Origin: Bacteroidota bacterium
Lineage (GTDB): Bacteria > Bacteroidota > Bacteroidia > Chitinophagales > Chitinophagaceae
DNA: 64,000 nt
Assembly (NCBI GenBank): GCA_023429825.1
Contig: JAEZDC010000035.1
Span: forward strand, 3,003 to 67,002
Direction of reading: 5' to 3'
The notes beneath the pieces were generated by a model. The model was not told where the DNA came from and did no database searches. It saw only the letters and a program-made list of their open reading frames with translations. How positions within the stretch are numbered: position 1 is the stretch's first letter; each line of letters opens with the position of its first letter. Position numbers and translations under genes: made by a program. This document shows positions 47,322 to 57,330 of the stretch, in pieces.

Positions 47322-47513
47322 ATGAAAAAGTTATTTGCAATCTTAGCAGTTGCTGGTGTTATGGCAGCTTGCAACAGCGGTGATGATGCTGCTACAACTG
47401 ACACAACAACTACTACAGTTGACACAACTACAGTTCCAGCTACAGTTGATACATCTGCTGCTACTGTAGATACTTCAGCTGCAACTTCAGCTGATACAAC
47501 TACAACTAAGTAA
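47322..47513 (+). CDS. tiny Thr/Asp-rich lipoprotein (63 aa)
   Basis: It has MKKLFAILAVAGVMAAC (signal plus lipobox), then a low-complexity T/D/A tail with a duplicated ATVDTSA. Its own terminator follows. Confidence 0.55.
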   Translation: MKKLFAILAVAGVMAACNSGDDAATTDTTTTTVDTTTVPATVDTSAATVDTSAATSADTTTTK

Positions 47514-47592
47514 TTGATTGAAGCACTTCGAAAAGTAGCTTGCCATCGAAGTAGCTTATACAAATTTTTCATATGGCAAGCAATCGTTAGAG

Positions 47593-47621
47593 GCCGTTCC
47601 GTTTCCACGGAAGGGCTTTTT
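47593..47621 (+). terminator. terminator after the tiny lipoprotein gene
   Basis: gcc-g-ttccgt pairs with acggaa-g-ggc (one mismatch) across loop ttcc, followed by ttttt. Confidence 0.6.
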
Positions 47622-47660
47622 CTTTGAAATATGTTCGATAACCTTTATTTTCGATGTAGA

Positions 47661-47711
47661 ATGAAACATAACAGCAAATATTATTATTGGTATTATTTCA
47701 ACAGGAAATAG
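47661..47711 (+). CDS. aromatic-rich leader peptide MKHNSKYYYWYYFNRK* (26 aa if started at ATG 47631: MFDNLYFRCRMKHNSKYYYWYYFNRK*)
   Basis: My own codon-by-codon translation. Seven consecutive aromatic codons lie at 47679-47699 (tat tat tat tgg tat tat ttc). The stop tag is at 47709-47711. It lies between a terminator and the tyrA start. Confidence 0.6.
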   Translation: MKHNSKYYYWYYFNRK

Positions 47712-47752
47712 CCGGGGTAGTATTTGCATGAACCATAACCAATTACTTATAC

Positions 47753-47786
47753 AAGATCCCGGCAACCAGCCGGGATCTTTGTTTTA
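47753..47786 (+). terminator. attenuator terminator 11 nt upstream of the tyrA start
   Basis: A perfect 11-bp stem, aagatcccggc (47753-47763) with gccgggatctt (47769-47779), has a 5-nt loop and is followed by tgtttta. An alternative pairing joins gccggggt (47711-47718) to atcccggc (47756-47763). Confidence 0.7.
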
Positions 47787-47796
47787 ATACCTGATT

Positions 47797-48639
47797 ATGA
47801 CTGTAGGAATTATCGGTACGGGTATGATGGGTGGAAGCTTTGCCTGGCTCATTAGCGAAAAGCAACCCTCATGGAATATTATCGGCTTCGACCGTTCGGC
47901 TGAACATGCGCAAAAGGCGTTGGAAGTTGGGTTTATTGATGAAGCGCTTTCAATGGAAGAATTGATCAGAAGAAGTGACCTGGTGATCATTACCATACCG
48001 GTAAATCATATCGTGGGTTTACTGCCCATCATAATGAATAAGATCAATGAAAGGCAGGTGGTGATGGATATCGGTTCTACCAAAGAGGAGATCGTAAACG
48101 CGATAAAAGATCATCCTAAAAGAAAACGGTTTGTTGCAACGCACCCTATGTGGGGAACGGAATACAGCGGGCCGGAGAATGCAGTAAAGGGCGCTTTCAA
48201 AGGAAGAGTAGCTGTTATCTGTAACAGAGATGAAAGTGATGCGGATGCGATTGAACTTGTGGAGAGCCTGTATAATCTTGTACCGATGCAGAAAGTGTAT
48301 ATGGAAGCGCATGAACATGATATACATGCTGCGTATGTAAGCCACATCAGTCATATTGCTTCGTACGCTTTGGCATTAACTGTGTTGGAAAAGGAAAGAG
48401 AAGAAGATAAAATATTCCAGTTGGCAGGTGGCGGTTTTGAAAGCACGGTGCGTTTGGCGAAGAGTAATCCAGCCATGTGGGTGCCGATCTTTATGCAGAA
48501 TAAAGAAAACGTGTTGGATGTATTGAATGAGCATATATCGCAGTTGCGCAAATTCAAAGCATGTTTGGAGAAAGAAAATTTTGAATACCTGCAAGAATTG
48601 ATAGAAGGGGCAAATAAGATCAAACGGATCATTAAATGA
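47797..48639 (+). CDS. tyrA: prephenate dehydrogenase
   Basis: 280 aa. It has an NAD fold (VGIIGTGMMGGSFA) and ..HPMWGTEYSGP.. and ..HD...A.VSH.SH.. motifs. Confidence 0.87.
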   Translation: MTVGIIGTGMMGGSFAWLISEKQPSWNIIGFDRSAEHAQKALEVGFIDEALSMEELIRRSDLVIITIPVNHIVGLLPIIMNKINERQVVMDIGSTKEEIVNAIKDHPKRKRFVATHPMWGTEYSGPENAVKGAFKGRVAVICNRDESDADAIELVESLYNLVPMQKVYMEAHEHDIHAAYVSHISHIASYALALTVLEKEREEDKIFQLAGGGFESTVRLAKSNPAMWVPIFMQNKENVLDVLNEHISQLRKFKACLEKENFEYLQELIEGANKIKRIIK

Positions 48640-48656
48640 TGATAATAGTTCAGAAA

Positions 48657-48676
48657 GTACAAGTGAGTGACACAAC
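48657..48676 (-). repeat. REP-like intergenic element, copy 4 (reverse orientation)
   Basis: gtacaagtgagtgacacaac is the reverse complement of gttgtgtcactcacttgtac, identical to the core of copy 1. Confidence 0.7.
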
Positions 48677-48748
48677 AGGCGATGCTATGAAAGACTAAAG
48701 CCGGTCTCATTATAACATTCAAAAACCATATAAGGCAATGAATTAAAG

Positions 48749-48756
48749 TACATTTG
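48749..48756 (+). promoter_or_regulatory. Bacteroidota -7 promoter box (TAcaTTTG) for the DEAD-box helicase gene
   Basis: An exact TAnnTTTG match ends 17 nt upstream of ATG 48773. Confidence 0.4.
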
Positions 48757-48772
48757 CCGCAAATTAGAATTG

Positions 48773-50443
48773 ATGACAACATTCAGTGAAGTAGGGTTAG
48801 ATGAAAGATTAGTGAAAGCAACAGATGCTTTGGGATTTGTGAACCCGAGCCCGATACAGGAGAAAGCTATTCCTGTGCTTTTAAGCGGAACAAAAGATTT
48901 TGTGGGGCTTGCTCAAACCGGAACCGGTAAAACCGCAGCGTTCGGGTTGCCGTTATTGCAGTTAATGGATACGAAGCAACGTTTTCCGCAAGCATTGGTT
49001 ATATGTCCTACCAGAGAATTGTGCATGCAAATAGTAAACGATATTGAACAATTCAAAAAGTTCATACCGGGCATGCATGTAGTTGCTGTGTATGGTGGTG
49101 CATCTATCAGCACACAAGTTCGGGATATCAGGAAAGGGGTGCAGATAATCGTAGCTACTCCCGGACGCTTGATCGACCTTATTGAACGTAAAGCGATCAA
49201 CCTCGAAGAGATAAAGTATGTAGTGTTAGATGAAGCCGACGAAATGCTGAACATGGGCTTCCAGGAAGATATTGAATTTATTCTCCAAAATACACCGAAA
49301 AGGGAAGCCACCTGGCTATTCAGTGCAACGATGCCGCCTGAGATCAGGCGAGTGAGTAAACGGTACATGAAACAACCTTTCGAGGTGACCGTTGGAAAGG
49401 CAAATACAGGAAGTAAGAATATCGATCACCAGTATTATGTGATACAGGCGCAGCATCGCTATGAAGCATTGAAGCGATTGATCGATTTCAACCCCGGTAT
49501 CTACGGGATCATCTTTACCAGAACAAAGCTTGACGCACAAGATATTTCTGAAAAACTTACAAGGGAAGGATACGACATTGATGCATTGCATGGAGATCTA
49601 ACGCAGGGGCAAAGAGATAAAGTAATGAGCGCTTTTAGAGAAAGAACATTGCAATTGCTAATCGCAACAGATGTAGCAGCAAGAGGTATCGACGTAAAAG
49701 AAATCACCCATGTGATCAACTATGAATTGCCTGATGATGTTGAAGTGTATACGCATCGAAGTGGAAGAACAGGTCGTGCAGGAAGCACTGGTATATGTAT
49801 GAGTCTTGTGCATGCAAGAGAGACATATAAGCTGCGTACCATCGAGAAAATGGTGCAGCAGCCATTTCACAAACTGGAGATTCCCAGCGGTAAAGATGTT
49901 TGCCGTAAACAGTTCTTCTTTTTCATGGACAAACTGTTGCAAACAGATATCTCTCATGGTGACTACGAAACATATTTACCAATGCTGCAGGAGAAGTTCG
50001 CAGATGTAAGTAAAGAGGAAGTATTGCAAAGAGTAGCTGCGTTAGAGTTTGACAGGTTCCTGAAATATTATGAGAACTCTGGTGATTTGAATGTCAGAGA
50101 TCAAAAAAGAGATAAAAGAGATGCTTCGGGAAATAGCAGGGATCGTGATCGCAGTGAAAGAAGAGATGGGAGAGGAGATAATCGTCGTCAGTCGAATGGC
50201 AATTTCAGTCGTTTGTTTGTGAACCTTGGAACAAAAGATGGTTTTTATAAAGCGAGTTTCCTTCAGTTCATTTTGGATATGAGCGATCTTAAAAAAGATG
50301 TACTTGGAAGGATCGATATGAAAGAAATGAATAGCTGGATAGAGATCGATGCCAAAGCTGCAAAACAAATGATCAGATCACTTGATGGTAAAAATTTTAA
50401 GGGAAGGAAGATCAGGATGAATGATGCGGACAGCAGGAGGTAA
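48773..50443 (+). CDS. deaD: DEAD-box ATP-dependent RNA helicase (DeaD/CsdA-like, DbpA-type C-terminal RNA-binding domain)
   Basis: It has the motifs AQTGTGKT, PTRELC, DEAD, SAT and HRSGRTGRAG. It has a basic RD-rich linker and a C-terminal ..IDMKEMNSWIEID..LDGKNFKGRKI. Confidence 0.9.
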   Translation: MTTFSEVGLDERLVKATDALGFVNPSPIQEKAIPVLLSGTKDFVGLAQTGTGKTAAFGLPLLQLMDTKQRFPQALVICPTRELCMQIVNDIEQFKKFIPGMHVVAVYGGASISTQVRDIRKGVQIIVATPGRLIDLIERKAINLEEIKYVVLDEADEMLNMGFQEDIEFILQNTPKREATWLFSATMPPEIRRVSKRYMKQPFEVTVGKANTGSKNIDHQYYVIQAQHRYEALKRLIDFNPGIYGIIFTRTKLDAQDISEKLTREGYDIDALHGDLTQGQRDKVMSAFRERTLQLLIATDVAARGIDVKEITHVINYELPDDVEVYTHRSGRTGRAGSTGICMSLVHARETYKLRTIEKMVQQPFHKLEIPSGKDVCRKQFFFFMDKLLQTDISHGDYETYLPMLQEKFADVSKEEVLQRVAALEFDRFLKYYENSGDLNVRDQKRDKRDASGNSRDRDRSERRDGRGDNRRQSNGNFSRLFVNLGTKDGFYKASFLQFILDMSDLKKDVLGRIDMKEMNSWIEIDAKAAKQMIRSLDGKNFKGRKIRMNDADSRR

Positions 50444-50474
50444 TTAGCGAATTAGCAAATGAGACAATTAGCAA

Positions 50475-51560
50475 ATGGAGGCAACATCAACACAACAGGA
50501 AAAATTGACTACAGTTTGGAATAAACGACCGCTCATAATCAGCGGGCCGTGTTCAGCTGAAACAGAAGAACAGGTTTTAGAAACAGCGCTGCGGTTGAAA
50601 GGCACTGGTAGGGTGGACATGCTCAGAGCCGGGATATGGAAACCCAGGACCCGCCCCGGAAGTTTCGAAGGAGTAGGAGCGAAGGGTTTGAACTGGTTAA
50701 TGAGTGCAAAAAAGCAAACTGGCTTACCTACAACCGTTGAAGTGGCTACAGGCAAGCAGGTAGAAGATGCATTACATTTTGATGTAGATGTATTATGGAT
50801 CGGGGCTCGAACTACAGTGAATCCTTTTAGTGTGCAGGAAGTTGCCGATGCATTAAGAGGTGTAAATGTGCCGGTGCTTATCAAAAACCCCATCAACCCC
50901 GATCTTGAATTGTGGACGGGTGCTGTAGAACGTGTTGCAAAAGCGGGTATCGAAAACATTGGGCTTATCCATCGTGGCTTTAGTTCATATGGTAACACAG
51001 AATATCGCAATGCACCCATGTGGCACCTGGCGATTGAGATGAAAAGAAGAAACCCGGGTATGATGCTGATCTGTGATCCTTCACATATCAGTGGCAGAAG
51101 AGATATATTATTAGATGTTTCGCAAAAGAGCATCGATCTTGATTATGATGGATTGATGATCGAATCACATATTGATCCGGACAATGCATGGAGTGATGCG
51201 AAGCAACAGATCACTCCTGAAACATTAGCAAAACTATTAGATCAAATCCAGTGGAGAGTAGAGACCATAGATGAGAAAGCATTCGTGGTGGCGCTGGAAC
51301 GACTGAGAGACCAGATCAATCATGTAGATGATGAGTTATTGCAACTGCTTGGTCAACGAATGAAAATTGCTGACAAAATCGGAGAATATAAAAAAGCGAA
51401 CAGCATCACCATTTTGCAAACGAGTCGCTGGAATGAGATATTAGAAAGAGCAATGGCAAAGGGAGAGAAGTTGGGCTTAAGTAAAGAATTCATTGTAAAA
51501 TATTTTGATGCCGTGCATATGGAAAGCATCAATCATCAGAATAAAATAATGAATAGTTAG
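50475..51560 (+). CDS. bifunctional 3-deoxy-7-phosphoheptulonate (DAHP) synthase / chorismate mutase
   Basis: 361 aa. It has a type I-beta DAHPS core (..ISGPCSAE..GIWKPRT..CDPSHI..) and a C-terminal AroQ chorismate mutase (LERLRDQINHVDDELLQLLGQRMKIADKIGEYKK). Confidence 0.87.
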   Translation: MEATSTQQEKLTTVWNKRPLIISGPCSAETEEQVLETALRLKGTGRVDMLRAGIWKPRTRPGSFEGVGAKGLNWLMSAKKQTGLPTTVEVATGKQVEDALHFDVDVLWIGARTTVNPFSVQEVADALRGVNVPVLIKNPINPDLELWTGAVERVAKAGIENIGLIHRGFSSYGNTEYRNAPMWHLAIEMKRRNPGMMLICDPSHISGRRDILLDVSQKSIDLDYDGLMIESHIDPDNAWSDAKQQITPETLAKLLDQIQWRVETIDEKAFVVALERLRDQINHVDDELLQLLGQRMKIADKIGEYKKANSITILQTSRWNEILERAMAKGEKLGLSKEFIVKYFDAVHMESINHQNKIMNS

Positions 51561-51589
51561 CCTGGCTTTCGGTGCATATGGCATCGTCT

Positions 51590-51609
51590 GTTGCGTCGCA
51601 CACTTGTAC
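51590..51609 (+). repeat. REP-like intergenic element, copy 5
   Basis: gttgcgtcgcacacttgtac lies between the DAHPS-CM stop and the aroB ATG. Confidence 0.7.
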
Positions 51610-51628
51610 GTTCAGAACAATATTGAGC

Positions 51629-52651
51629 ATGACCAAACTAACATACAAATTTTCAACTGCATCAACTGACTTCTACTTCAACAGTAGTTTCTCACTACTG
51701 AAAAAGCGTATCGATCAAAAGAATACAGTTCTTGTTACAGATGAAAATGTTTTCAATGCACACAAGTACAAATTCAAGAACTGGAATACCATAATTCTCA
51801 AACCAGGCGAGCAATATAAGATCCAGCAAACCGCAGATGCAGTTATCGATCAATTAATAGAATTTGAAGCAGACAGAAAAACGATGCTGGTTGGTATAGG
51901 TGGTGGTGTGATCACTGATATCACTGGTTATGTCGCTTCAATATACATGCGTGGAATTCAATTTGGTTTTGTACCAACTACATTATTAGCGATGGTGGAT
52001 GCCAGCATTGGCGGGAAGAATGGAATTGATGTAGGAGAATATAAGAATATGGTGGGCACTATCAAACAACCTTCATTCATCTTACACGATCATAGTTTGC
52101 TTTCATCATTACCGGTTCGGGAATGGCAAAATGGATTTGCAGAGATCATTAAACATGCCTGCATAAAAGATGCGGCTATGTTCAAAGCGCTTGAAGTAAA
52201 TTCTATTAATCAGTATAGAAAGAAAAAACAGTTACAAGCTGAGCTTGTGAAACAAAATGCGTTGATCAAATTAAAAACAGTTCAGAAGGATGAGTTTGAA
52301 CAAGGTGAGAGAAAGCTGTTGAATTTTGGTCATTCGCTTGGGCATGCATTGGAAACACAATATGAGCTTTCGCATGGACAGGCGATCAGTATTGGAATGA
52401 CCTATGCTGCTGAAATATCAGCTAAACTTTTAAACTTTAGAGATACAGAAAGACTTACTTCCATTCTCGAACAATATGGACTTCCAACCTACGCGTCATT
52501 CAATGCGAGGAAAGTATTTGATGTGTTGAAGATGGATAAGAAAAGAGAGAAAAAAGACATCAATTATATTTTGCTGGACAAGATCGGTAAGGCGAAGATC
52601 CAATCAATTCCTTTGAAGCAATTGCAACAATTAATAGGAGGTTTGCAATGA
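51629..52651 (+). CDS. aroB: 3-dehydroquinate synthase
   Basis: I prefer the start at ATG 51629 (MTKLTYKF); upstream ORF codons cover the REP-like element. It has the motifs GGGVITDITGY, ..DASIGGKNG.. and ..NFGHSLGHALE. Confidence 0.87.
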   Translation: MTKLTYKFSTASTDFYFNSSFSLLKKRIDQKNTVLVTDENVFNAHKYKFKNWNTIILKPGEQYKIQQTADAVIDQLIEFEADRKTMLVGIGGGVITDITGYVASIYMRGIQFGFVPTTLLAMVDASIGGKNGIDVGEYKNMVGTIKQPSFILHDHSLLSSLPVREWQNGFAEIIKHACIKDAAMFKALEVNSINQYRKKKQLQAELVKQNALIKLKTVQKDEFEQGERKLLNFGHSLGHALETQYELSHGQAISIGMTYAAEISAKLLNFRDTERLTSILEQYGLPTYASFNARKVFDVLKMDKKREKKDINYILLDKIGKAKIQSIPLKQLQQLIGGLQ

Positions 52652-53988
52652 TCGTGTTGGTGCAACCTTCAATAATTTCAGGGGCACTTCATGCACCGGC
52701 ATCTAAGAGTGCAATGCAACGAGTTTGCGCTGCAGCAGTGATACGAAAAGGACAAACGATCATTCATAATCCCGGCAATTCTAATGATGATAAAGCAGCA
52801 TTGAATGTTATTCAACAGCTGGGAGCAAATGTGGACGAAGTAAGTGGAAAGCTGATAGTGAGTAGTAAAGGCGTATATCCAATTTCAAACACCCTGCATT
52901 GTGGTGAAAGTGGATTAGGCATAAGAATGTTCACACCACTTGCAGCATTAAGCAATAGAGAAATCGCAATTCGCGGTGAAGGCAGCCTCGTTACTCGTCC
53001 AATGAATTTCTTTGATGAGGTGCTGCCTAAACTTGGTGTGTTTATGAGATCAAATGGAGGTAAGCTGCCGCTAATTATCAAAGGGCCATTGCAACCAAGG
53101 ACCATCACTGTTGACGGATCATTGAGTTCTCAGTTTCTTACGGGATTGCTGATGGCTTTTTCTGCTGCCAATGCTTCAGATGTGTCTATTCATGTAACTG
53201 ATCTTAAGAGCAAACCATACATTGACCTCACATTACAGGTGATCAAAGATCTCGGAATGAAATTACCGCAGAATAAAAATTATAGTGAGTTCTATTTTGA
53301 CAATTCTGCTATTCATTCATTTTCAACTATCGACTACACTGTTGAAGGTGATTGGAGTGGGGGTGCTTTTCTTTTAGTAGCAGGTGCTATCGCAGGAAAT
53401 GTTACTGTAAAATGTTTATTAAACATATCAAGACAGGCAGATAAAAGAATAGTGGATGCATTGCTGGATGCAGGTGTAGATGTTACTGTGCGGGAGGATC
53501 AGGTTGAAGTGAAACGAAAAGATCTGCAATCGTTTGAGTTCGATGCAACAGATTGTCCCGACTTGTTTCCACCATTAGTAGCACTAGCAGCTAACTGCAA
53601 AGGCATATCCAGACTAAGAGGTTTAAGAAGATTGAAGCACAAAGAAAGTGACAGGGGAGTAACGCTGCAGGAAGAATTCAATAAACTGAGTACACGCATT
53701 GATCTGGATGGAGATGAAATGATCGTCTACGGCAATGAAAAGATATTCGTCAAGAATCATACACTCAATTCTCATCACGATCACAGAATAGCGATGGCGT
53801 GTGCAGTAGCGTGTTTAAATGCAGATTTTGAAGTGGAGATAAGGAATGCCGATGCAGTAAAAAAATCCTACCCTGATTTCTGGGATCATTTGAAGCAATT
53901 AAAAGCTGGTATATCTTTAAAGCCATTTACTAATGATAGTACATATGACCTCACCCCTAACCCCTCTCCGAAGAAGAGAGGAAGGTAG
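52648..53988 (+). CDS. aroA: 3-phosphoshikimate 1-carboxyvinyltransferase (EPSP synthase) with repeat-derived C-terminal tail
   Basis: An ATGA overlap joins it to aroB. It has ..PASKSAMQR.., ..LHCGESGLGIRMF.. and ..KESDR.. motifs. The last 14 codons (DLTPNPSPKKRGR*) are encoded by the solo repeat copy. Confidence 0.9.
   Translation: MIVLVQPSIISGALHAPASKSAMQRVCAAAVIRKGQTIIHNPGNSNDDKAALNVIQQLGANVDEVSGKLIVSSKGVYPISNTLHCGESGLGIRMFTPLAALSNREIAIRGEGSLVTRPMNFFDEVLPKLGVFMRSNGGKLPLIIKGPLQPRTITVDGSLSSQFLTGLLMAFSAANASDVSIHVTDLKSKPYIDLTLQVIKDLGMKLPQNKNYSEFYFDNSAIHSFSTIDYTVEGDWSGGAFLLVAGAIAGNVTVKCLLNISRQADKRIVDALLDAGVDVTVREDQVEVKRKDLQSFEFDATDCPDLFPPLVALAANCKGISRLRGLRRLKHKESDRGVTLQEEFNKLSTRIDLDGDEMIVYGNEKIFVKNHTLNSHHDHRIAMACAVACLNADFEVEIRNADAVKKSYPDFWDHLKQLKAGISLKPFTNDSTYDLTPNPSPKKRGR
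53947..53988 (+). repeat. solo copy of the DUF559-cassette terminal repeat
   Basis: gaCCTCACCCCTAACCCCTCTCCGAAGaAGAGaGG.. matches 54473-54513 almost base for base. It contains the aroA stop codon (tag, 53986-53988). Confidence 0.75.
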
Positions 53989-54037
53989 AAACGAGAGGCG
54001 GTGTTATTAAAAAGATTTAACCATATAATTTTTACAA

Positions 54038-55564
54038 GTGAACAGTTTCGGCCGAATATTTCGCATCCACATCTTTGGAGAATCACATGGTGAATGTGCA
54101 GGTGTGACTATTGATGGTTGTCCTGCTGGATTACAGTTGTCTGCTGAAGATTTTATTGCAGATTTAGAAAGGAGAAAAGGAGGTCAAAAAAAAGGAACAA
54201 CACCAAGACAGGAAGAAGACCTTCCCATCTTTAAGTCCGGAATATTCAATGATAAAACAACCGGGGCTCCGATAACGATCCTGTTTGAAAACAAAAATGT
54301 TCGTTCTGCTGATTATGAAAAGCAGAGAGATTATCCTCGACCTGGACATGCAGATTTTGTAGCACATGAAAAGTTTGGTGGGTATGAAGATTATCGCGGC
54401 AGCGGGCATTTCAGCGGGAGGTTGACTGTTGGATTGGTAGCGGCTGGGGTGATTGCGAAGAAACTTTTAAAGAACCTCACCCCTAACCCCTCTCCGAAGG
54501 AGAGGGGAATGAGATCCCATTCACCTTTTGGTTACATTACCTCTACACCTGATTCCTATTATCTTTTAAAAGAATTCGCAAAGCAAAACAGGCATAGCCC
54601 CACTGAAGCAGAAGATAAATTGTGGCAATTACTTCGTAACAGAAAGGTTGAAGATGCAAAATTCCGGAGACAACATCCTGTAGCGGGTTTTATTCCTGAC
54701 TTTGTGTGTCTTGAAAAGAAGCTGATCATTGAAATTGATGGCGGATATCATTCACAAGAAGATCAAAAGAAATACGATAATGCCAGAACCGAATGGTTGA
54801 AAGAGCACAACTATCAATTATTACGATTTACCAATGAGGATATCTTAATCCATGAAGAAAAAAGTGTGGATGAGATAAGAAAAGCTTTAAAGAACTTCAC
54901 CCCTAATCCCTCTTCAAAGGAGAGGGAAACGCTTGAAGGATTACCAGACACTGTTTCAAAAACGAGTGCCACCTCTCCCTCTCCCTTGGAGAGGGAGTCG
55001 GAGGGTGAGGTCAACATACAAGCAAATATCTTAGAAATAGGAGGTGAGCAGGATTTAGATAAAGGCCTTCAAAAAGCTATCGATGCCAAAGATTCTATCG
55101 GTGGAATAATAGAATGCAAAGCGTCTGGTTTACCAACAGGCCTAGGTGAACCATTCTTCGATTCAGTAGAATCTCTTATAGCACATATTGTATTTGCTAT
55201 ACCTGCAGTAAGAGGAATTGAATTCGGTACCGGCTTCGCTGCTGCGAAAATGTTTGGCAGTGAACATAATGATGCAATTGTCGATGAAAGTGGTTCCACT
55301 CAAACCAATCATGCCGGCGGAATAGTAGGAGGTATCACCAATGGAAATGAATTGGTATTTCGTGTTGCTATCAAGCCTACTTCATCTACACCTAAACCTC
55401 AGCAAAGTCTCAACTGGAATACAGGTGTTGTTGAAGAGTTCTCTATAAAAGGCCGACATGATCTATGTATCGCTTTGCGGGTACCTGTGATTCTTGAAGC
55501 AGTAACGGCAATTGTATTGGCAGATCTTATGTTAATGGGACAAAGAATACCTAGAATATTATGA
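54038..55564 (+). CDS. aroC: chorismate synthase interrupted in frame by a 179-codon DUF559 cassette
   Basis: GTG start (MNSFGRIFRIHIFGESHG). The AroC motifs are split. RPGHADF and GSGHFSGR lie before codon 146. DSIGG, GLGEPFFD, AVRGIEFGTGF and KGRHDLC lie after codon 324. The ORF is a continuous 508 aa. Confidence 0.85.
   Translation: MNSFGRIFRIHIFGESHGECAGVTIDGCPAGLQLSAEDFIADLERRKGGQKKGTTPRQEEDLPIFKSGIFNDKTTGAPITILFENKNVRSADYEKQRDYPRPGHADFVAHEKFGGYEDYRGSGHFSGRLTVGLVAAGVIAKKLLKNLTPNPSPKERGMRSHSPFGYITSTPDSYYLLKEFAKQNRHSPTEAEDKLWQLLRNRKVEDAKFRRQHPVAGFIPDFVCLEKKLIIEIDGGYHSQEDQKKYDNARTEWLKEHNYQLLRFTNEDILIHEEKSVDEIRKALKNFTPNPSSKERETLEGLPDTVSKTSATSPSPLERESEGEVNIQANILEIGGEQDLDKGLQKAIDAKDSIGGIIECKASGLPTGLGEPFFDSVESLIAHIVFAIPAVRGIEFGTGFAAAKMFGSEHNDAIVDESGSTQTNHAGGIVGGITNGNELVFRVAIKPTSSTPKPQQSLNWNTGVVEEFSIKGRHDLCIALRVPVILEAVTAIVLADLMLMGQRIPRIL
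54473..55012 (+). mobile_element. TIR-bounded DUF559 (Vsr/restriction-endonuclease-like) cassette, about 540 bp
   Basis: The left repeat (54473-54513) carries the hairpin cccctctcc-gaa-ggagagggg (54487-54507). An internal direct copy lies at 54893-54931. The right inverted copy (54968-55012) carries the hairpin ctccctctcc-ctt-ggagagggag (54975-54997). The internal ORF from ATG 54509 has the DUF559 signature (LWQLLRNRK..KFRRQHPV..FIPDFVC..LIIEIDGGYH..LRFTNEDI). Boundaries are good to a few nt only. Confidence 0.6.
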
Positions 55565-55869
55565 TCATCTACCACATCACTTATGCAACAGACTGGGAGC
55601 TGGGGTTAACGCAAGGTTTTTACACAGCCCCCTCTTTACAGGCAGAAGGGTTTATCCATTGCAGCCTGGATAACCAGGTACAAGGTGTATTGGAAAGATA
55701 TTATGCAGGCGAAACCAATCTAGTAAAGCTTGTCATCGATACAGATAAATTAGATCATCAGCCAAAATTTGAATTAGCTCCTTCTGTAAACGAAGACTTC
55801 CCTCATATTTATGGCCCGATCAATTTAAATGCAGTAACAGAAGCGGTGCATTTGGATAAGGGAGAATAA
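55561..55869 (+). CDS. DUF952-family protein
   Basis: 102 aa with ..EGFIHCS......V.......L..ID...L......E......FPHIYGPIN, typical of DUF952. An ATGA overlap joins it to aroC. Confidence 0.78.
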   Translation: MIIYHITYATDWELGLTQGFYTAPSLQAEGFIHCSLDNQVQGVLERYYAGETNLVKLVIDTDKLDHQPKFELAPSVNEDFPHIYGPINLNAVTEAVHLDKGE

Positions 55870-55920
55870 AAAAGGATCACGGTTACCCGCAATCCTCTCT
55901 CTATAAACTTCATATTAAGA

Positions 55921-57330
55921 TCAAATATCTATCGCCTCGCCATATGCCGCAGCAGTAGCCTCCTTCAATCCTTCACTCATCGTAGGATGCGGATGCACGG
56001 CATTCAATATTTCGTGAGCTGTAGTCTCTAACTTCCTTGCAACCACCGCTTCAGCAATCATCTCTGTTACATTATTCCCGATCATATGACAGCCTAAGAA
56101 CTCGCCATACTTCGCATCGTATACCACCTTTACAAAACCTTCTGTTGCACCTGATGCACTCGCTTTACCACTCGCCATGAAAGGAAACTTACCCACTTTT
56201 ACTTCATAGCCTGCATCTTTAGCAGCCTTCTCTGTCATACCCACACTGGCGATCTCCGGTGAGCAATATGTACAGCCAGGAATATTTCCAAAATCCATCG
56301 CTTCAGGCATGTGATGAAATTTCTTTTCATTATATCCCATATGCTCTGCTGCAAGAATACCTTCTTTCGCAGCCTTATGTGCCAATGCATGATTTGGAAC
56401 ACAATCCCCGATTGCATAAATACCCTGCACAGAAGTCTGGCAGTATTTATCGATAACGATCTTTCCTTTTTCAGTCTTTACACCTAATTGCTCCAGACCT
56501 AAGTCTTCAATATTAGAGACTACACCTACAGCGCTCAATACGATATCCGCCTCCAGTGTAACCATGCTACCATCCTGCTTCTTTACATAAGCTTTCACCC
56601 CATCACCGCTCTTTTCCACTTTCTCAACAGATGCATTGGTCATGATCTCCATGCCCTGCTTTTTGTATTGCTTCTCGAGTTCTTTGGATATCTCTTCATC
56701 TTCTACCGGAACGATCCTCGGCATAAACTCAACGATCGTCACTTTTGTTCCCATGCTATTGTAGAAATACGCGAATTCAACACCTATCGCACCACTACCC
56801 ACAATGATCATACTCTTAGGCTGCTGTGGTAATACCATCGCTTCCCTGTAACCGATGATGCTTTTACCATCTATCGGAAGATTAGGCAATTGTCTTGCTC
56901 TACCACCTGTCGCCAAAACAATATATTTCGCTTCAACAGTTTGTTTGCTTCCATCGGCAGCAGTTACCTCTACTTGTCCTTTAGCCTTCAGCCTCCCATA
57001 ACCCATGATCACATCGATCTTATTCTTCTTCATCAGGAACTGAACACCTTTGCTCATTTTATCTGCCACACCACGACTACGTTTGATCACTGCCCCAAAA
57101 TCTGCCTGCGCCCCACTGATATTGATACCATAGTTACTGCCATGCTTTGCATATTCGTACACCTGGGCGCTCTTCAACAACGCTTTAGTAGGAATACAAC
57201 CCCAGTTCAAGCAGATACCACCAAGACTTTCTTTTTCAATGATAGCCACTTTAAAACCCAGCTGTGAAGCACGAATAGCCGCAGGATACCCTCCAGGACC
57301 ACTACCTATAACAATTACGTCGTAAGCCAT
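55921..57330 (-). CDS. lpdA: dihydrolipoyl dehydrogenase
   Basis: 469 aa. It has the FAD fold VIVIGSGPGGY, the redox disulfide GGICLNWGCIPTK, the NAD fold IIVGSGAIGVE and a C-terminal HPHPTMSE. Confidence 0.92.
   Translation of the reverse strand: MAYDVIVIGSGPGGYPAAIRASQLGFKVAIIEKESLGGICLNWGCIPTKALLKSAQVYEYAKHGSNYGINISGAQADFGAVIKRSRGVADKMSKGVQFLMKKNKIDVIMGYGRLKAKGQVEVTAADGSKQTVEAKYIVLATGGRARQLPNLPIDGKSIIGYREAMVLPQQPKSMIIVGSGAIGVEFAYFYNSMGTKVTIVEFMPRIVPVEDEEISKELEKQYKKQGMEIMTNASVEKVEKSGDGVKAYVKKQDGSMVTLEADIVLSAVGVVSNIEDLGLEQLGVKTEKGKIVIDKYCQTSVQGIYAIGDCVPNHALAHKAAKEGILAAEHMGYNEKKFHHMPEAMDFGNIPGCTYCSPEIASVGMTEKAAKDAGYEVKVGKFPFMASGKASASGATEGFVKVVYDAKYGEFLGCHMIGNNVTEMIAEAVVARKLETTAHEILNAVHPHPTMSEGLKEATAAAYGEAIDI

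Follow-up and report, generated by a model that had tools for sequence, protein, structure and literature searches.

A candidate tyrosine-weighted leader-peptide attenuator precedes a tyrA-led aromatic gene cluster in Chitinophagaceae

Results

An aromatic-codon leader precedes tyrA

Within a stretch of 64,000 nucleotides (nt) of contig JAEZDC010000035.1 from a Bacteroidota bacterium of the family Chitinophagaceae (hereafter the window), we evaluated the region immediately upstream of tyrA, which is the first structural gene of a cluster that Pfam assignments order as tyrA, DEAD/DbpA helicase, DAHP synthase+chorismate mutase, aroB, aroA and aroC. This region holds a leader peptide open reading frame (ORF), MKHNSKYYYWYYFNRK*, in which seven aromatic codons stand in tandem (5 Tyr, 1 Trp and 1 Phe), as well as an intrinsic terminator hairpin, and together they make up a candidate attenuator of the aromatic genes (Table 1). 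A preliminary description of this DNA had pointed to a short ORF with seven tandem aromatic codons and to a downstream tyrA-deaD-DAHPS/CM-aroB-aroA-aroC cluster, and both claims hold, the ORF at 47661-47711 in the sequence and the gene order by Pfam. Aromatic runs of at least 7 codons were seen once across the six frames of the 64-kb window versus 0.015 expected per window (from 200 first-order Markov simulations), and no second mini-ORF with 7 aromatic residues in 8 was found within the window. Judging from its codons, the signal sensed by this leader would be mainly Tyr.

The leader folds into three mutually exclusive helices

Folding of the leader revealed the classical 1:2 / 2:3 / 3:4 design of an attenuator, in which the three helices share bases and are thus mutually exclusive. 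In the anti-antiterminator (1:2), nucleotides 47674-47685, which cover the Ser-Lys-Tyr-Tyr-Tyr codons, pair with 47716-47727 and the stretch with the Trp codon (47688-47691) pairs with 47711-47714, such that the hairpin 47674-47727 alone reaches -18.0 kcal/mol. The antiterminator (2:3) joins GCCGGGGU (47711-47718) to AUCCCGGC (47756-47763) and AGUA (47719-47722) to UACU (47744-47747), and in doing so it takes 8 of the 11 bases of the terminator left arm. The terminator (3:4) begins 41 nt past the leader stop and its stem ends 17 nt before the tyrA ATG (47797). Taken as a whole, the 146-nt leader fold has a z of -5.1 versus shuffles. The preliminary description had already given the 11-bp stem, the TGTTTTA tail, the two spacings and the pairing of 47711-47718 with 47756-47763, all of which were recovered here, with the last extended by the AGUA/UACU pairs, whereas the 1:2 hairpin had been missed. 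It had also proposed to compare the energies of the two competing states, and this comparison gave a folding energy of -19.9 kcal/mol for the terminator versus a combined -15.1 kcal/mol for the antiterminator.

Table 1. Coordinates of the tyrA leader features and of the downstream genes in the window.
Feature	Coordinates	Strand	Remark
-33-like promoter element TTTG	47623..47626	+	19 nt upstream of -7 box
-7 promoter box TATTTTCG	47646..47653	+	consensus TAnnTTTG; 7 nt before ATG 47661
Leader peptide ORF MKHNSKYYYWYYFNRK*	47661..47711	+	ATG 47661, TAG 47709-47711, 16 codons
Region 1, anti-antiterminator 5' strand	47674..47691	+	minimum free energy and centroid folds
Regulatory codons UAU UAU UAU UGG UAU UAU UUC (Y Y Y W Y Y F)	47679..47699	+	sequence
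Region 2 GCCGGGGUAGUAUUUGC	47711..47727	+	first base is last of stop codon; partner is region 1 or region 3
Region 3	47744..47763	+	47744-47747 and 47756-47763 pair with region 2; 47753-47763 is terminator left arm
Intrinsic terminator hairpin (3:4)	47753..47779	+	11 perfect pairs (47753-47763 / 47769-47779), 5-nt loop
U-rich tail UGUUUUA	47780..47786	+	sequence
tyrA (prephenate dehydrogenase), first structural gene	47797..48639	+	Pfam PDH_N plus PDH_C
DEAD-box/DbpA RNA helicase gene	48770..50443	+	Pfam
DAHP synthase+chorismate mutase	50475-51560	+	Pfam
aroB	51572-52651	+	Pfam
aroA	52648-53988	+	Pfam
aroC	54038-55564	+	Pfam
DUF952	55561-55869	+	Pfam

The leader is conserved before tyrA and belongs to a wider family

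We compared the window with 160 TyrA-anchored loci from genomes and metagenomes plus eight close relatives, the TyrA homologues of which bear Chitinophagaceae names. In all 21 other loci in which tyrA comes first, a Tyr-rich mini-ORF, followed by a terminator, stands 120-150 nt ahead of that gene, so that the conservation that the preliminary description had wished to see checked is indeed found. The closest relatives encode the peptides MTQYSKYYYWYYLNRITG, MKQVSKYYYWYYLNRITG, MTCTSKYYYYYYSTE, MTLTGKYYYYYFTNRIAG and similar, while a more distant group encodes MNNNNQNTWQYYYSYYNSRPVYFC, MTNKSTNTWFYFSYYFTNRPGAFVIN and similar, and the Tyr codons in these relatives show synonymous UAU/UAC changes along with aromatic-to-aromatic swaps, including Trp to Tyr in some. 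Full folds returned the same three helices in 13 of 13 relatives plus the window, and in most relatives the tail is an unbroken run of 5-9 U. The public annotations returned for relatives have no gene call for any of these leader ORFs.

The leader extends beyond the tyrA-first layout. Of the 104 loci that reach 2.7 kb or more upstream of tyrA, 100 have a leader plus terminator, which in most of them stands before pheA (prephenate dehydratase), an aminotransferase gene and tyrA, in that order. The homologous leader before pheA-aminotransferase-tyrA was collected from 93 Chitinophagaceae loci. These pheA-type leaders alternate Phe and Tyr codons (e.g., MNIAKAYGFFYFYFYFYFTSRPGMLLLTTK and MQTLLNNTRFYFFFYFYFKQSSRVVFAKA), and their units combine a -7 box a few nt before the ATG, a CCGGG / UUUUGUU ... 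AACAUAAA / CCCGG arrangement and a terminator. In these leaders the ORF extends to 24-31 aa, longer than before tyrA, has region 2 well inside it and lies 2.1-2.6 kb upstream of tyrA. An nhmmer profile built from the 93 pheA-type leaders gave a single match in the 64-kb window, at 47642-47785 with E = 4e-14, which indicates that the tyrA leader is a homologue of the pheA-type leaders and not a look-alike. At gathering thresholds, Rfam returned nothing relevant for the whole window and 16 related loci, and a cmscan search of 47450-47900 at E<=10 returned no leader family. We also considered a structured RNA gene upstream of tyrA in most relatives, and rejected it on finding that the pseudo-translations were off-frame readings of the aminotransferase gene.

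Evaluating codon content across the two layouts revealed that leader composition tracks operon content. Mean codon counts per leader are 1.3 Phe, 4.8 Tyr and 0.7 Trp for the 22 leaders of the tyrA-first layout, versus 5.4, 3.9 and 0.2 for the 93 pheA-first leaders, and Y/(Y+F) is 0.79 versus 0.42 (Mann-Whitney p = 2e-11, for sequences that are not phylogenetically independent). No tblastn match to pheA or the aminotransferase was found within the window or within the flanks of tyrA-first loci. Because the window leader precedes tyrA, lacks these two genes within the window and has the codons Y5 W1 F1, it appears as a derived, Tyr-weighted variant of the family.

An unweighted pair group method with arithmetic mean (UPGMA) tree of TyrA p-distances places the tyrA-first loci in at least three groups (window-type, L009-type and L039 alone), and the shift to this layout may have happened more than once, as such a tree is compatible with one or several origins. 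One further locus, L154, carries an F/Y leader, MKTAFAYRFYSYSYFPEAGIVFA, plus terminator at 758-890, 355 nt upstream of tyrA, with neither pheA nor the aminotransferase between leader and tyrA. It stands apart in the UPGMA tree, its TyrA is closest to those of pheA-type loci, and it may have lost pheA and the aminotransferase recently or independently, with its leader not yet re-tuned.

Covariation supports both RNA states

We aligned 66 leaders with MAFFT, giving it no structural information. In this alignment, pairing in the terminator state (1:2 plus 3:4) reached 70.5% of cells versus 41-56% when partners were slid, with a covariation score of 0.210 versus 0.160 +/- 0.006 that 0 of 500 shuffles reached and with changes on both sides in 29 of 37 pairs. 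The 1:2 helix is itself supported by covariation, with both of its sides changing, and the terminator helix is 85% paired with 9 of its 13 pairs changed on both sides; an equivalent of the terminator hairpin is conserved in the 116 leader units collected. The antiterminator was likewise 78.0% paired versus 38-45% when slid, with a score of 0.125 versus 0.080 +/- 0.006 (0 of 500 shuffles) and 53 double-change cells versus 27 +/- 4. Duplexes of region 2 and region 3 averaged -12.5 kcal/mol with their own partner versus -11.55 +/- 0.12 kcal/mol when permuted (0 of 5000 permutations reached the observed value) and -4.85 with region 2 shuffled. The arms match by type, such that CCCCCG left arms occur with GGGGG-type region 2 and CCCGGC arms with GCCGGG. 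Among the 11 close relatives alone the helices are kept, being 78% and 74% paired versus 36-55% when slid.

The spacing fits a translating ribosome

A ribosome protects roughly 12-15 nt downstream of its A site, and the position of region 2 relative to the codons can be read against this footprint. Across the 116 units the region 2 core lies 24-42 nt past the first aromatic codon and 8-24 nt past the last, either inside the ORF or at its stop codon; in the window these distances are 31 nt and 13 nt, with region 2 starting 1 nt past the first base of the stop. Given that footprint, ribosomes stalled on early or middle aromatic codons would leave region 2 free, and because the stop codon lies at region 2, a terminating ribosome would mask the antiterminator. 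The spacing thus fits the preliminary proposal that a stall on the Y/W/F codons frees the antiterminator and a ribosome at the stop hides it.

The window has two in-frame UAGs, one at 47709-47711 and, past CCG GGG, another at 47718-47720. The second (ACC GGG UAG, part of region 2) is the stop in most close relatives, and the earlier one is the stop in the window, L081, L161 and L163, so the position of the stop relative to region 2 varies within this clade.

A promoter box close to the leader ATG suggests a nearly leaderless transcript

Promoters in Bacteroidota follow the consensus TTTG-N19-21-TAnnTTTG. Of 116 leaders, 88 have a strict TAnnTTTG in the 25 nt that precede their ATG, versus 0.7% in the background, and 109 have a relaxed form of it, with a box-to-ATG gap that has its mode at 7 nt and ranges from 4 to 14 nt. 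In 59 of 109 homologous leaders (54%), versus 5.5% in the background, a TTTG precedes the -7 box by 17-23 nt. The window has both elements, and its -33/-7 promoter is presumably the one used at this locus.

The placement of this promoter bears on the start codon. The preliminary description had also offered a reading from ATG 47631, which is in frame and gives 26 aa with 10 aromatic residues, but this ATG falls within the promoter, making its use as a start very unlikely, and the upstream ATG is not conserved. We therefore rejected the 26-aa ORF as the translated form, and translation almost certainly starts at ATG 47661. In Flavobacterium psychrophilum, the mapped start site of a comparable leader lies 6 nt after the G of the -7 box (PMC9723704), from which a 5' untranslated region (UTR) of ~0-4 nt is predicted for the Chitinophagaceae leaders, which would leave the RNA that encodes the leader peptide nearly leaderless.

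Neighbouring genes and a conserved upstream element

Downstream of tyrA, no + strand terminator-like site was found in 48600-56000, and the genes at 50475-55869 are presumed to be co-transcribed. The helicase gene between tyrA and the DAHP synthase gene was found in the window-type clade alone, with L009-type loci having a small 160-aa ORF in its place. Just before the helicase start, at 48750-48757, lies a perfect Bacteroidota -7 box, TACATTTG, which could be an internal promoter. In aroC (chorismate synthase, 508 aa), the two enzyme halves are separated by an in-frame insertion of ~165 aa (~54461-54996) with a DUF559 (Vsr-like endonuclease) domain. Direct repeats of 49 nt, which share 86% identity, border this insert (54461-54509 and 54881-54929), and both end in the palindrome CCCCTCTCC-GAAG-GAGAGGGG, of which a third copy lies at 54976-54996. 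The insert resembles a mobile DUF559 element that has entered, in frame, an essential gene of the putatively attenuator-controlled cluster.

Upstream of the leader, a small lipoprotein-like ORF of 63 aa (47322-47513; MKKLFAILAVAGVMAAC..., with Thr/Asp/Ala-rich VDT/DST repeats and the end ...TTK) had no Pfam family and is conserved next to the aromatic operon, on its upstream side, in many Chitinophagaceae. Between this ORF and the leader promoter lies a very strongly conserved non-coding element (47534-47627), always 15-93 nt past the stop of the lipoprotein-like ORF. In it, GCUUGCCAU (47539-47547) pairs with AUGGCAAGC (47574-47582), followed by AAUCGUUAGAG and then a terminator hairpin, and the stretch TTTTCATATGGCAAGCAATCGTTAGAGGCCG is near-identical across genera. 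A single copy of its 12-nt core GRCAARCAATCR, on the + strand, is present in 59 of 168 loci, and nhmmer found one copy of the element in each of 62 loci; it lies at most 600 nt upstream in 56 of 110 leaders, in tyrA-first and pheA-first layouts alike. Variant 3' strands are compensated in the 5' strand, the terminator stems covary, and the duplex scores -13.2 with its own partner versus -12.7 when permuted (1 of 5000 reaches it) and -7.2 when shuffled. Rfam gave no match to 47534-47627, and the element could be a 3'-UTR structure or a small RNA. In the window-type relatives L164 (1685-2797) and L165 (58-1191), an opposite-strand Acyl_transf_3 gene lies between this element and the tyrA leader, and an acetyltransferase gene also lies 3' of tyrA. 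The leader unit thus travels with tyrA and not with the upstream element.

Discussion

A leader-peptide attenuator is the best supported reading of the locus

Taken together, the tandem-codon ORF, the intrinsic terminator, the base-sharing antiterminator, the 1:2 helix and the fitting spacing lead us to conclude that this element is very probably a ribosome-mediated leader-peptide attenuator of the tyrA-led aromatic operon, tuned mainly to charged tRNA-Tyr. The preliminary description had read the element in the same general way, and conservation, covariation, geometry and the way in which leader codons match operon content support that reading at the level of sequence. From the same evidence we infer where transcription starts, that the ORF is translated, that the hairpin acts as a terminator, that the element responds to Tyr, and the downstream extent of the regulated transcript.

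In the mechanism that we propose, transcription would begin ~2 nt before ATG 47661 from the -33/-7 promoter, and the 16-codon leader would be translated almost leaderless. When Tyr-tRNA (plus Trp- and Phe-tRNA) is ample, the ribosome would pass the YYYWYYF codons to the stop at 47709-47711 and cover region 2 (47711-47727), and were the leader left untranslated, region 1 would sequester region 2 instead. With region 2 covered or sequestered in either way, region 3 would pair with region 4, the terminator at 47753-47779 would form and RNA polymerase would stop at ~47786. When Tyr-tRNA is scarce, the ribosome would stall at the early or middle aromatic codons and melt region 1, leaving region 2 free to pair with region 3, such that the terminator is blocked and transcription runs into tyrA and the shikimate genes.

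Several observations weigh against this proposal or narrow it. The antiterminator is weaker than the terminator (-15.1 versus -19.9 kcal/mol), and anti-termination would therefore have to be kinetic, as it also is in classical attenuators. The window element has a broken U-tract (UGUUUUA), which may make termination weaker here than in relatives, and because the Trp UGG pairs with region 2, it may be kept for structure and not for Trp sensing. A ribosome stalled at the last aromatic codon (F13) would touch the first bases of region 2, and only stalls on earlier aromatic codons would free region 2 fully. Covariation was not significant within the 11 close window-type relatives, and the broader 66-sequence alignment is thus needed to see it. 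Leaderless initiation is a prediction from the promoter consensus. Finally, the -7-like box before the helicase gene means that the downstream genes could partly escape the attenuator.

Other explanations accept some of these features and replace the rest. The helices may be real while a ligand, a tRNA or a protein drives the switch (as in a riboswitch, a T-box or a TRAP-like system), the mini-ORF then being an AU-rich by-product. Such a view draws on the C-terminal peptide motifs SRPGMLLL and SRVVFAKA, which mainly mirror RNA-level conservation of region 2, and on the UGG pairing just mentioned; it is, however, very improbable in light of the ATG, the frame and a stop at or within region 2 being kept in 116 units, of aromatic codons that vary synonymously (UAU/UAC, UUU/UUC) and by aromatic swaps, of F versus Y content that follows the downstream genes, of a promoter box placed 4-10 nt from the ATG, and of the absence of an Rfam riboswitch or T-box match. 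Were the leader translated, it could still act as a nascent-peptide sensor of a free aromatic amino acid (a TnaC-like arrest), or the control could be by Rho-dependent polarity. Nothing specific points to such control. The peptide outside the aromatic run is poorly conserved between subgroups, a canonical GC-rich hairpin with a U-tract and a covarying antiterminator is present, and the leader codons match the operon products as control by tRNA charging predicts, making this explanation still less probable than the previous one.

A hairpin downstream of a small same-strand ORF (47322-47513) might also be no more than a constitutive terminator or insulator of that upstream gene, with an aromatic mini-ORF beside it by chance. 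That gene, however, has its own conserved terminator at ~47590-47618, which is followed by the leader promoter; the number of such aromatic runs expected per window is only 0.015; and the unit is conserved before aromatic operons in >100 loci, which leaves this the least credible of the three, with a probability close to negligible. The leader-peptide attenuator thus remains our preferred reading.

A more specific version of this reading is one we hold to be about evenly balanced. It states that the element is a tyrosine-specific attenuator that arose from a bivalent Phe/Tyr attenuator of pheA-aminotransferase-tyrA through loss of the first two genes, with FYFYFY re-tuned to YYYWYY, perhaps in more than one lineage, and that its leader is translated leaderless (AUG ~0-4 nt from the 5' end). 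In the literature we found no documented Tyr-specific attenuator and no documented Tyr-dominated leader before tyrA, though an earlier comparative-genomics prediction is possible: attenuators in Bacteroidetes/Chlorobi were reportedly treated by Vitreschak et al. in 2004 in FEMS Microbiol Lett.

Significance

How Bacteroidota regulate aromatic amino-acid synthesis is poorly charted, with the repressors TyrR and TrpR, T-box and TRAP having been described from other phyla. The mechanism considered here is known, and the family is known in outline, having been reported once (in a Flavobacterium supplement) and being absent from Rfam. New here are the Tyr-weighted tyrA-first member, how large and uniform the family is in Chitinophagaceae, the correlation of leader codons with operon content, and the probable leaderless arrangement. 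The family amounts to an unannotated, family-wide cis-regulator with >100 examples and no Rfam model, and is of use for marking operon starts and small ORFs when genomes of Chitinophagaceae, and probably those of Flavobacteriia, are annotated. It also offers a natural experiment, as leader codons (Phe+Tyr versus Tyr) follow the gene content of the operon. The textbook mechanism stays unchanged by a candidate Tyr-responsive attenuator and candidate leaderless translation of a regulatory peptide; if true, a leaderless leader would represent an unusual coupling of the first ribosome to RNA polymerase in a phylum lacking Shine-Dalgarno initiation.

Comparison with known systems

Textbook cases of leader-peptide attenuation are the trp, phe, his, leu, thr and ilv operons. 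The window element resembles E. coli pheL-pheA (Phe_leader) and trpL (Trp_leader) in its tandem cognate codons, its 1:2/2:3/3:4 helices and a terminator before the first gene (PMC11802643), and it differs from them in having no Rfam match, Tyr as the main codon, a Bacteroidota-type promoter and no Shine-Dalgarno leader, and in an operon that starts with tyrA and includes the common shikimate pathway. Within Bacteroidota, the Bacteroid-trp motif (Rfam RF01692; Weinberg et al. 2010, PMC2864571) is a leader-peptide-type cis-regulator of the trp operon; unlike the window, which does not match RF01692, it carries Trp codons and precedes the trp operon.

As summarised in PMC11802643, a leader peptide with Phe-Tyr-Phe controls the DAHP-synthase operon in C. 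glutamicum aroR-aroF (Neshat et al. 2014), responding to Phe limitation and reportedly not to Tyr availability (PMC11802643). On that summary, aroR-aroF shares with the window an aromatic-codon leader peptide on an operon of the common aromatic pathway, and differs in having three regulatory codons only, in belonging to an unrelated phylum and in showing no homology.

A member of the same phylum comes from F. psychrophilum, where a start-site-mapped 5' region before pheA-aspC3 encodes the leader MNTNNTFYSNNSFYFYWNIGRDCYMVI (Guerin et al. 2021, ISME Commun, PMC9723704, Table S7 / Appendix D9). This leader shows read-through in minimal medium, which its authors read as leader-peptide attenuation, and had no Rfam hit (PMC9723704). 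Like the window element, it has a short ORF with tandem F/Y/W codons, no Rfam match, region 2 in the 3' part of the ORF, a CCCG-type terminator plus U-run and an aromatic operon downstream. Unlike the window, it precedes pheA, mixes Phe, Tyr and Trp codons and has a mapped 5' UTR of ~20 nt versus the predicted ~0-4 nt, and it is backed by a transcriptome where the window element is known from sequence alone. The Chitinophagaceae leader profile matches it at E = 5e-7, which is a weak match of high compositional bias (25 bits, bias 24.5).

No publication was found in the literature on the leaders of Chitinophagaceae pheA-aminotransferase-tyrA operons. These pheA-type leaders share with the window DNA-level homology, promoter placement, the three helices and the type of terminator.

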